This document shows, piece by piece, positions 3,005-3,964 of a stretch of DNA of 46,225 nt (positions are counted from its first letter, which is position 1; the number at the start of each line of letters is the position of its first letter). Where the stretch lies: assembly GCF_003334315.1 (NCBI RefSeq), contig NZ_QOWR01000037.1; one strand, written 5' to 3'. The DNA comes from Escherichia coli. GTDB taxonomy: Bacteria; Pseudomonadota; Gammaproteobacteria; Enterobacterales; Enterobacteriaceae. A model generated the notes under the pieces. It searched no databases and was not told the DNA's origin. It saw nothing but the letters and a program-made list of their open reading frames with translations. The position numbers and the translations under genes are program-made.

Positions 3005-3964
3005 TTAGTTGTACATTACCACGATTTTGACTCGGCTCATTATTTGCCCGCTTGAGACATTGTTTCCATATGTACGCGGGCGAATAAACAGAGGAATCTG
3101 ATTACTTCCTTCATGGGGATGCTGAAAAGAGTAGTAATTGCTTTTACCATACTGGATTTCATTCGTACCATCATTGGAGAGTTGAAAGCCTATTTGACCC
3201 GCACCGTCCTCACTGTTTTCTAACTCATTTTTTAATATGCTGGTTCCTGACTCCTGTATCGTCACTGGTTCAAAGTAATATTCAACGTCACTGGGTTCAA
3301 AAACTAATTCACCTTGCTCGCCCTGGATGCAGTCAAATCTTATATGATGAAACTGATAATTTTCATTATTGATACGAGACAGTACAAATCGTCCAGTGTC
3401 GATGGATTGATCTTCAAAACCACAGGTCATTAAATTTACCTGTAAAATAGTATTTAAATTAAAATTAAAACGGACGCTATTACAATTAGTATTATTCCCT
3501 GTACATGAACTCACTTCAATTTCGAACAACAAAGGAAAAGGCGTTCCTGGAAAAATATCTGCGGTGTTGGAACTATCTGATACAGATGCGATAGAGTATG
3601 GAATGGTGAAATTTATCGCAGATAGCATATCTTCTAAATTATAAGATGACTTCCCTGGAAGCTCTATTTTTTTACCGTCAGATTCAAAGGGGAAATTAAT
3701 AATATAATGACGACTTCCGACTTTAAACCTTAAAGCGTTCTGTGTTAAAAAATGAACTTTAATGGCGTTAGTCGTCTCTTGCAAGTCTGCACACTCAATG
3801 ATATTTCCGGTGTTTTCAATTTTTTCGGCGGTGAGATTACCTTTCATACTCAGTGGCTTGAGTATATATGTTCCACGTTGTTCCCCGACATTGGTCAATG
3901 CACAGGGAGCACTTTGCACAATAAAAGAATATAGACTCAAGGTGATTAATAAAAGCCACTTCAT
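3005..3964 (-). CDS. Putative fimbrial tip adhesin (chaperone-usher family), orphan, 319 aa
   Basis: N-terminal signal peptide MKWLLLITLSLYSFIVQSAPCAL; size ~300 aa; C-terminus ...SRVKIVVMYN has the alternating-hydrophobic beta-strand typical of pilin-domain C-termini (compare FimH ...VTFVYQ); AGGAG Shine-Dalgarno ~8 bp upstream; starts 10 bp after the usher stop. Confidence 0.6.
   Translation of the reverse strand: MKWLLLITLSLYSFIVQSAPCALTNVGEQRGTYILKPLSMKGNLTAEKIENTGNIIECADLQETTNAIKVHFLTQNALRFKVGSRHYIINFPFESDGKKIELPGKSSYNLEDMLSAINFTIPYSIASVSDSSNTADIFPGTPFPLLFEIEVSSCTGNNTNCNSVRFNFNLNTILQVNLMTCGFEDQSIDTGRFVLSRINNENYQFHHIRFDCIQGEQGELVFEPSDVEYYFEPVTIQESGTSILKNELENSEDGAGQIGFQLSNDGTNEIQYGKSNYYSFQHPHEGSNQIPLFIRPRTYGNNVSSGQIMSRVKIVVMYN

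Follow-up and report, generated by a model that had tools for sequence, protein, structure and literature searches.

An intact but orphaned tip-adhesin gene in the Yeh-like fimbrial locus of Escherichia coli

Gene content of the nhaR-rpsT region

The 46,225-nucleotide stretch of Escherichia coli DNA analyzed in this work (contig NZ_QOWR01000037.1 of assembly GCF_003334315.1, referred to as the window) covers the nhaR-rpsT region: it opens with hokC/sok, nhaA and nhaR, and rpsT and ribF follow later. The interval between nhaR and rpsT is an AT-rich island, with a guanine-plus-cytosine (GC) content of 31-40% vs. about 50% in the flanks, and includes the open reading frame (ORF) under study (3005..3964, minus strand, 37% GC). 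This ORF is predicted to encode the tip adhesin of a chaperone-usher fimbrial operon, most of which has been deleted from the window, and its survival is best explained by slow neutral decay in a lineage that has so far escaped a disabling mutation. The features of the locus, in the order in which they are read on the minus strand, were as follows.

5555-6975, minus strand: frameshifted espX1, in the island
5309-5554, minus strand: non-coding stretch of 246 bp, what is left upstream of the former operon (promoter/leader), joined to the usher remnant by the deletion; aligns to positions 11852-12108 of the operon-bearing genome PapRG-06-5 (L001), upstream of the major subunit gene
5306..5311, no strand: deletion junction, between 5308 and 5309, with ACC microhomology (alignment with L001)
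3977..5308, minus strand: usher pseudogene that keeps the last 443 codons of an 816-amino acid (aa) Yeh-type usher (NF011763 profile, alignment with L001 and annotation note)
3965..3976, minus strand: 12-nucleotide (nt) spacer AAGGAGTTTACT (read on the coding strand), with the ribosome-binding site AAGGAG at 3971-3976
3005..3964, minus strand: ORF for a predicted 319-aa YehA-family two-domain tip adhesin of the Yeh-like/O-island 1 operon (ORF, AlphaFold2 model, profile search and synteny)
3911..3964, minus strand: codons 1-18, predicted Sec signal peptide MKWLLLITLSLYSFIVQS (rule-based, from the sequence layout)
3440..3910, minus strand: codons ~19-175, variable N-terminal beta-domain, putatively receptor-binding (lectin-type) (AlphaFold2 secondary structure and whole-chain fold matches)
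3820..3825, minus strand: A6 tract (ORF nt 140-145), site of an A6 to A5 frameshift in other genomes, intact here (allele comparison)
3667..3673, minus strand: A7 tract (ORF nt 292-298), site of an A7 to A8 frameshift in O157:H7, intact here as A7 (allele comparison)
3008..3436, minus strand: codons ~177-319, pilin domain with the final strand VKIVVMYN (FimH/FimA profile match and Foldseek)

The locus has already been described. It is the “Yeh-like” gamma4 chaperone-usher cluster between nhaR and espX1, i.e. O-island 1 (z0020-z0025) of enterohemorrhagic E. coli O157:H7; its usher (Z0022/ECs0022) was listed under the gamma4 type “Yeh-like” by Wurpel et al. (2013, Table S2), with entries in strains from phylogroups D, E, B1 and A, and none in B2. 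The window carries this same locus, with the same flanking genes, but in the opposite state of decay: the major subunit, chaperone and usher are kept in O157:H7 and the adhesin gene is frameshifted, whereas in the window the adhesin gene is intact and the rest is deleted. The locus presumably also corresponds to “loc1” of Low et al. 2006. A literature search on “loc1”, on orphan adhesins and on nhaR together with usher returned nothing specific, and the names ECs0021/ECs0022 in PMC3175480, considered as possible locus tags, were rejected because they are names of small RNAs (sRNAs).

The same four-gene layout, with a protein of ~320 aa encoded last, is found in the gamma4 systems Yeh (yehDCBA, with YehA) and Stc of Salmonella (stcABCD, with StcD). 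The proteins at the yehA position are 33-43% identical to the window protein, and the ushers belong to the same subfamily (NF011763). The window locus is nevertheless paralogous, lying between nhaR and espX1 and not beside rcnB, and it lacks a chaperone, a major subunit and a complete usher.

Structure of the open reading frame and of the usher remnant

The adhesin ORF runs uninterrupted from ATG to TAA over 319 aa. The TAA stop codon of the usher remnant is located at 3977-3979, and the gap between it and the adhesin ATG, given as 10 bp in an earlier note made from this DNA alone, is 12 nt long (3965-3976), with AAGGAG 6 nt before the ATG; the start codon and ribosome-binding site described in that note were thus present. 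The N-terminus (MKWLLLITLSLYSFIVQS/AP, the slash marking the predicted cleavage point) showed, on rule-based inspection, the basic, hydrophobic and small-residue regions typical of a Sec signal peptide (V at position -3, S at position -1), in agreement with the signal peptide previously proposed; residues 2-15 formed a helix of low confidence in the AlphaFold2 model. A C-terminal strand of pilin type had also been proposed, and the last residues of the protein (...SRVKIVVMYN) did align with the last strand of the FimH and FimA pilin domains, with an aromatic penultimate residue.

Of the 826 positions of the usher profile NF011763, the usher fragment upstream covers only 431-826, its gene having lost the 373 N-terminal codons. 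In a 99.9% identical genome it was labelled “incomplete; missing N-terminus” by the NCBI annotation pipeline (PGAP), so the truncation of the usher reported earlier was also borne out.

The encoded protein

No Pfam model matched the 319-aa protein itself, even at E≤10, and the best NCBIfam match was a fimbrial-like model at only E=0.06; its identity was therefore taken from a family alignment, a profile search against the PDB, AlphaFold2 modelling and synteny. An exhaustive protein search returned 44 representatives, including full-length relatives of ~320 aa, 23-43% identical to the window protein, and many short truncated fragments; a word-indexed search returned mainly truncated clusters and missed the main one. 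Over both searches, full-length homologues ranged from 23 to 48% identity. Two relatives (43% and 33% identical) occupied the yehA position in the order metG-apbC-yehE-yehD-yehC-yehB-X-rcnB. The existence of full-length homologues, together with the terminal position in chaperone-usher operons in the contexts examined, indicates that the ORF is not a chance one.

A profile built from 15 full-length family members, run against solved structures, matched FimA and the pilin domain of FimH (the latter at E=0.0066), and PF00419 was found in 6 of these 15 members, though not in the window sequence. T180, C181, C212, G256, G259 and F260 were invariant in the pilin domain, and in the family alignment conservation was lowest over the half that contains the N-terminal beta-domain. 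The AlphaFold2 model (predicted local distance difference test, pLDDT, 85; predicted template modelling score, pTM, 0.69) contained two beta-domains, at residues ~20-175 and 177-319, and its top fold matches were all two-domain chaperone-usher tip adhesins: FimH (3e-10), FocH, PapG, CfaE, CupB6 and LpfD. In Foldseek, the single-domain subunits FimG, FimA and FimF matched the C-terminal half (template modelling score, TM, 0.6-0.7), and the N-terminal domain matched the FimH lectin domain weakly (TM ~0.35). The predicted fold thus resembles that of FimH and PapG, an N-terminal beta-domain followed by a pilin domain that is Ig-like but incomplete and ends in a strand, but sequence identity to these proteins is only 10-14%. 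According to this model, the profile search and the synteny, the ORF encodes a two-domain tip adhesin of the FimH/YehA type belonging to the YehA family, which agrees with the adhesin-type gene postulated beforehand. The gene is annotated as “hypothetical protein” when intact and as “fimbrial family protein” when broken, and “YehA-family tip adhesin” would be a better name. The 90%-identity cluster containing the 319-aa protein had an 816-aa usher as its representative, presumably bridged by a fused gene call; as this cluster merges adhesin and usher, cluster sizes are useless for counting intact and broken alleles.

The ancestral operon and its deletion

At the same site, L001 carries a four-gene operon encoding a fimbrial protein (177 aa), a chaperone (227 aa), an usher (816 aa) and a 319-aa adhesin, in the order major subunit, chaperone, usher, tip adhesin, with the adhesin gene terminal. 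The L001 usher passes the NF011763 model. The closest counterpart of the major subunit is YehD and that of the chaperone StcB/YehC, the chaperone being 59% identical to a YehC orthologue. The window differs from this arrangement by a single 2,442-bp deletion at 5308/5309, with ACC microhomology, which removed the 44 bp preceding the ATG of the major subunit, the major subunit gene itself (L001 11274-11807), the chaperone gene (L001 10541-11224) and usher codons 1-373. Without a cognate chaperone, a full-length usher and a major subunit, there is no functional chaperone-usher fimbrial operon at this place in the window. The adhesin gene is therefore orphaned, as the earlier note had stated, by loss of its cognate major subunit and chaperone and of the N-terminal half of the usher.

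The region 5309-5554 was retained, and transcription from the native promoter may therefore extend into the remnant. The earlier note had proposed testing 5315-5554 for a promoter, and a consensus scan did find one promoter-like site (5359..5330, minus strand), the only one in the retained upstream region 5309..5554; the number of promoter and terminator consensus sites between 2900 and 5700 was, however, no higher than in shuffled sequence, making the scan uninformative on expression. The sequence across the deletion junction (5306-5325, minus strand) contains a weak hairpin, after which comes a T-rich run (ACCTGATCACATAATCGGGT ACGATTTTAT), and the number of such terminator-like sites was within chance expectation.

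A second, independent deletion of ~2.44 kb was present in genome WB61 (L029 1337-2925, corresponding approximately to window 5270-5350). It joins L001 positions 9446 and 11887 with ATAAT microhomology and, like the first deletion, eliminated the major subunit, the chaperone and the N-terminus of the usher, both ends being offset by only ~36 bp. No more than 7 genomes could be of this rare type, judging from the low-identity bands of the junction search. The two deletions may end at nearly the same points owing to a patch of imperfect similarity, or by chance.

Distribution and inactivation of the adhesin gene

The locus was surveyed in 5,426 complete E. coli genomes. The identical deletion junction was present in 2,428 of them, from many hosts and continents, and the chaperone and major subunit genes were still present in 1,200, including O157:H7. 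K-12 retains only ~140 nt of the 3' end of the ORF, and nothing was left in the remaining genomes. The sharing of one junction by 2,428 genomes means that the deletion is old and shared, not recent.

Two systematic samples spread over the junction-bearing genomes (21 genomes altogether) contained 12 intact ORFs, 8 with the A6 to A5 frameshift at ORF nt 140-145, which leads to a stop at codon 73, and one with a nonsense mutation at codon 219. Allele-specific queries of 45 nt detected A5 in 805 genomes and A6 in 2,102. Two frameshifted A5 alleles had later gained extra nonsense mutations. Because the A6 tract is short and the A5 alleles essentially constitute a single clade, no phase variation is claimed there. 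Inactivation was also seen where the operon is otherwise preserved: the adhesin ORF was broken in 2 of 7 sampled operon-intact genomes, and the exact A7 to A8 frameshift allele of O157:H7 was present in 294 genomes using a 70-nt query (queries of 45-46 nt across the A7/A8 tract gave no match, which was attributed to low-complexity masking).

The haplotype of the window ORF and usher remnant showed 33 differences with respect to the operon-intact L001, vs. 40-54 with respect to the main deletion clade; the segment 3005-5308 therefore groups with operon-intact alleles (L001, O157:H7) despite having the identical junction, and ~198 genomes carry this haplotype at ≥99%. These sequence comparisons suggest that the flanks of the deletion have been shuffled by recombination.

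Variation in the adhesin gene and in the usher remnant

The overall ratio of nonsynonymous to synonymous diversity (piN/piS) was 0.15 in the adhesin ORF and also 0.15 in the dead usher remnant. Since a pseudogene gave the same value, most of this signal would correspond to variation that came from functional alleles by descent or recombination, and the ratio was discarded as evidence of constraint. The comparison was instead confined to rare variants (count ≤2) found only in the deletion class. The ratio of nonsynonymous plus nonsense to synonymous changes was 8:4 for the ORF, 9:7 for the usher remnant and 4:13 for nhaA plus nhaR, small numbers in all cases, against an unbiased-mutation expectation of ~3.8:1. 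By Fisher test, the ORF did not differ from the usher remnant (p=0.70) but did differ from nhaA plus nhaR (p=0.029). Disabling substitution or indel events were no rarer in the ORF than in the usher remnant (four in 960 nt vs. two in 1,332 nt). Frequent inactivation, together with rare variants like those of the remnant, indicates that the ORF is not preferentially preserved. In one genome (L003, PCP06235), four nonsynonymous singletons were clustered within 150 nt of the usher remnant (nt 275-418), and may correspond to a small recombination patch or to assembly errors.

Relationship with FmrA (Z0021)

In O157:H7, the A8 frameshift splits the adhesin ORF into an N-terminal ORF of 108 aa and a C-terminal ORF. 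An exact look-up identified the 108-aa product as “hypothetical protein Z0021 [E. coli O157:H7 EDL933]” (AAG54320.1), that is, FmrA; the window ORF is thus the full-length parent of Z0021 (fmrA) plus Z0020. FmrA consists of the first 99 residues of the adhesin, including the signal peptide, and a 9-residue frameshift tail, and its coding part in O157:H7 Z1814 (L030 1699-2025) is equivalent to window 3641-3964. Residues 1-99 of the window protein are identical to Z0021 at 98 of 99 positions, although the window protein is not the Z0021 polypeptide, since it lacks the A8 frameshift and has 319 aa vs. 108 aa.

According to PMC9387321, PMC10877973 and PMC3681947, which summarize the work of Allison et al. 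(2012), deletion of Z0021 (fmrA) raises motility and flagellin, its overexpression abolishes motility, and FmrA acts downstream of flhDC expression. In the consulted reviews describing FmrA, an action on FlhD4C2 was proposed, and neither a signal peptide nor its nature as an adhesin fragment was mentioned. As FmrA is a fragment of an adhesin bearing a signal peptide, direct action on cytoplasmic FlhD4C2 is questionable. Unchaperoned pilins are sensed by the Cpx system, and a periplasmic route, e.g. stress produced by a pilus subunit unable to fold, would be no less plausible; periplasmic stress caused by an unassemblable adhesin fragment is suggested here as an alternative for FmrA.

The motility repressors PapX and MrpJ resemble the adhesin gene in being encoded at the 3' end of fimbrial operons, and the Z0021 fragment has likewise been reported to repress motility. 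PapX and MrpJ are cytoplasmic DNA-binding proteins; the window protein has a signal peptide and a predicted adhesin fold, so any effect on motility would have to differ from their mode of action.

Fate of the orphaned adhesin gene

Slow neutral decay of an orphaned tip-adhesin gene, still unhit in this lineage, is the best explanation of these observations, with a probability of about three in four. In the ancestor of nearly half of the sequenced E. coli, one illegitimate-recombination event at the ACC microhomology would have removed 2,442 bp, leaving the 3' half of the usher gene and the adhesin gene. The latter would then have drifted without detectable selection, acquiring a frameshift at the A6 tract in a large sister clade and remaining intact in the window only for want of a disabling mutation so far. 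Transcription from the retained leader and translation from the ribosome-binding site of the gene would, if they occur, yield an exported adhesin; its pilin domain needs a donor strand, and without the chaperone it would not fold and would probably be degraded in the periplasm, possibly with some envelope stress.

Several results weigh against this explanation. Twelve of the 21 sampled deletion-class genomes keep the ORF at full length with its start codon and ribosome-binding site, the WB61 deletion also leaves it intact, and its overall piN/piS is low (0.15). The A5 alleles being essentially one clade, there were few independent hits, and the figure of 43% inactivated overstates their number; the small sample of rare variants also leaves room for weak purifying selection. 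Lastly, a fragment of this gene, FmrA, has a published phenotype in O157:H7.

The earlier note had put forward two reasons for the persistence of the orphaned adhesin gene, a recent deletion or maintenance for another purpose; that an adhesin gene was orphaned was confirmed, but neither reason was supported at the population level. A deletion so recent in this lineage that there was no time for decay might seem to be favored by the window haplotype, which is nearer to operon-intact alleles than to the main deletion clade (33 vs. 40-54 differences), but the junction is the same base for base as in the 2,428 genomes, so the event is shared and not specific to the lineage. This contradicts a recent origin, which is most improbable, and recombination in the flanks accounts better for the haplotype pattern. 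As for maintenance, inactivating mutations were frequent across the population (9 of the 21 sampled ORFs and the 805 A5 genomes), a result that the earlier note had itself listed as refuting its proposal, and rare variants were as unconstrained as in the usher remnant. The frameshift of the O157:H7 allele in an otherwise complete operon and the two broken ORFs among the seven operon-intact genomes were also counted against it.

The published FmrA phenotype is the sole reason why the idea of a gene kept for another purpose retains some life. The adhesin might have a pilus-independent role as an FmrA-like repressor of flagellar motility, lowering class II/III expression, and the exported N-terminal part or the unassembled adhesin could act either by a dedicated interaction or by way of stress signalling in the periplasm. 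This would be consistent with the exact identity of the 108-aa O157:H7 fragment to a protein with a motility phenotype (as summarized in the papers cited above), with the 98/99 identity of the window protein over the shared part and with the conservation of the operon leader upstream. Such a role is nonetheless unlikely: 805 genomes cut the ORF at codon 73, giving a product shorter than FmrA, K-12-type and other lineages have lost the ORF altogether, the rare-variant spectrum is no more constrained than that of the usher remnant, and the phenotype belongs to a truncated product in a strain with chaperone and usher, not to a full-length orphan.

Chaperone-subunit and usher-adhesin recognition is generally system-specific, as in Fim and Pap, which argues against assembly of the adhesin in trans by the paralogous core Yeh system (yehDCBA) or by another gamma4 system, in which case it would not be truly orphaned. 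In E. coli, the Yeh fimbriae are a core-associated type (PMC3559732), the window protein is 43% identical to a YehA orthologue with conserved pilin-domain motifs, and the lost chaperone was 59% identical to a YehC orthologue, all of which would favor such assembly; the frequent inactivation of the adhesin ORF, even beside its own intact machinery, makes it very improbable. A speculative combination of these ideas, in which the orphan adhesin, expressed from the retained leader, exported and lacking donor-strand complementation, would give a periplasmic signal that lowers flagellar synthesis, FmrA being its frameshift fragment acting via envelope stress, and in which part of the E. coli population would retain the gene for this purpose or have its product assembled by Yeh, is likewise doubtful. 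Neutral decay therefore remains the preferred explanation, and the locus, already catalogued, would be a textbook case of piecemeal decay of one of the many cryptic fimbrial operons of E. coli.

Neighboring genes and other features of the window

The type III effector gene espX1 (5555-6975, minus strand) is frameshifted in the window, having lost one base at nt 266 of the gene next to a run of T, and was marked as frameshifted by PGAP in 11 of the 22 deletion-form genomes (the 21 with the same junction plus WB61); the neighbor of the adhesin ORF is thus decaying too. Outside the island locus, the window contains a hokC/mokC toxin ORF with the sok antitoxin RNA (RF01794; 98-400, minus strand) and matches to the ES003 sRNA and to naRNA4 (16194-16246 and 21422-21492, plus strand), all of them ordinary E. 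coli features.
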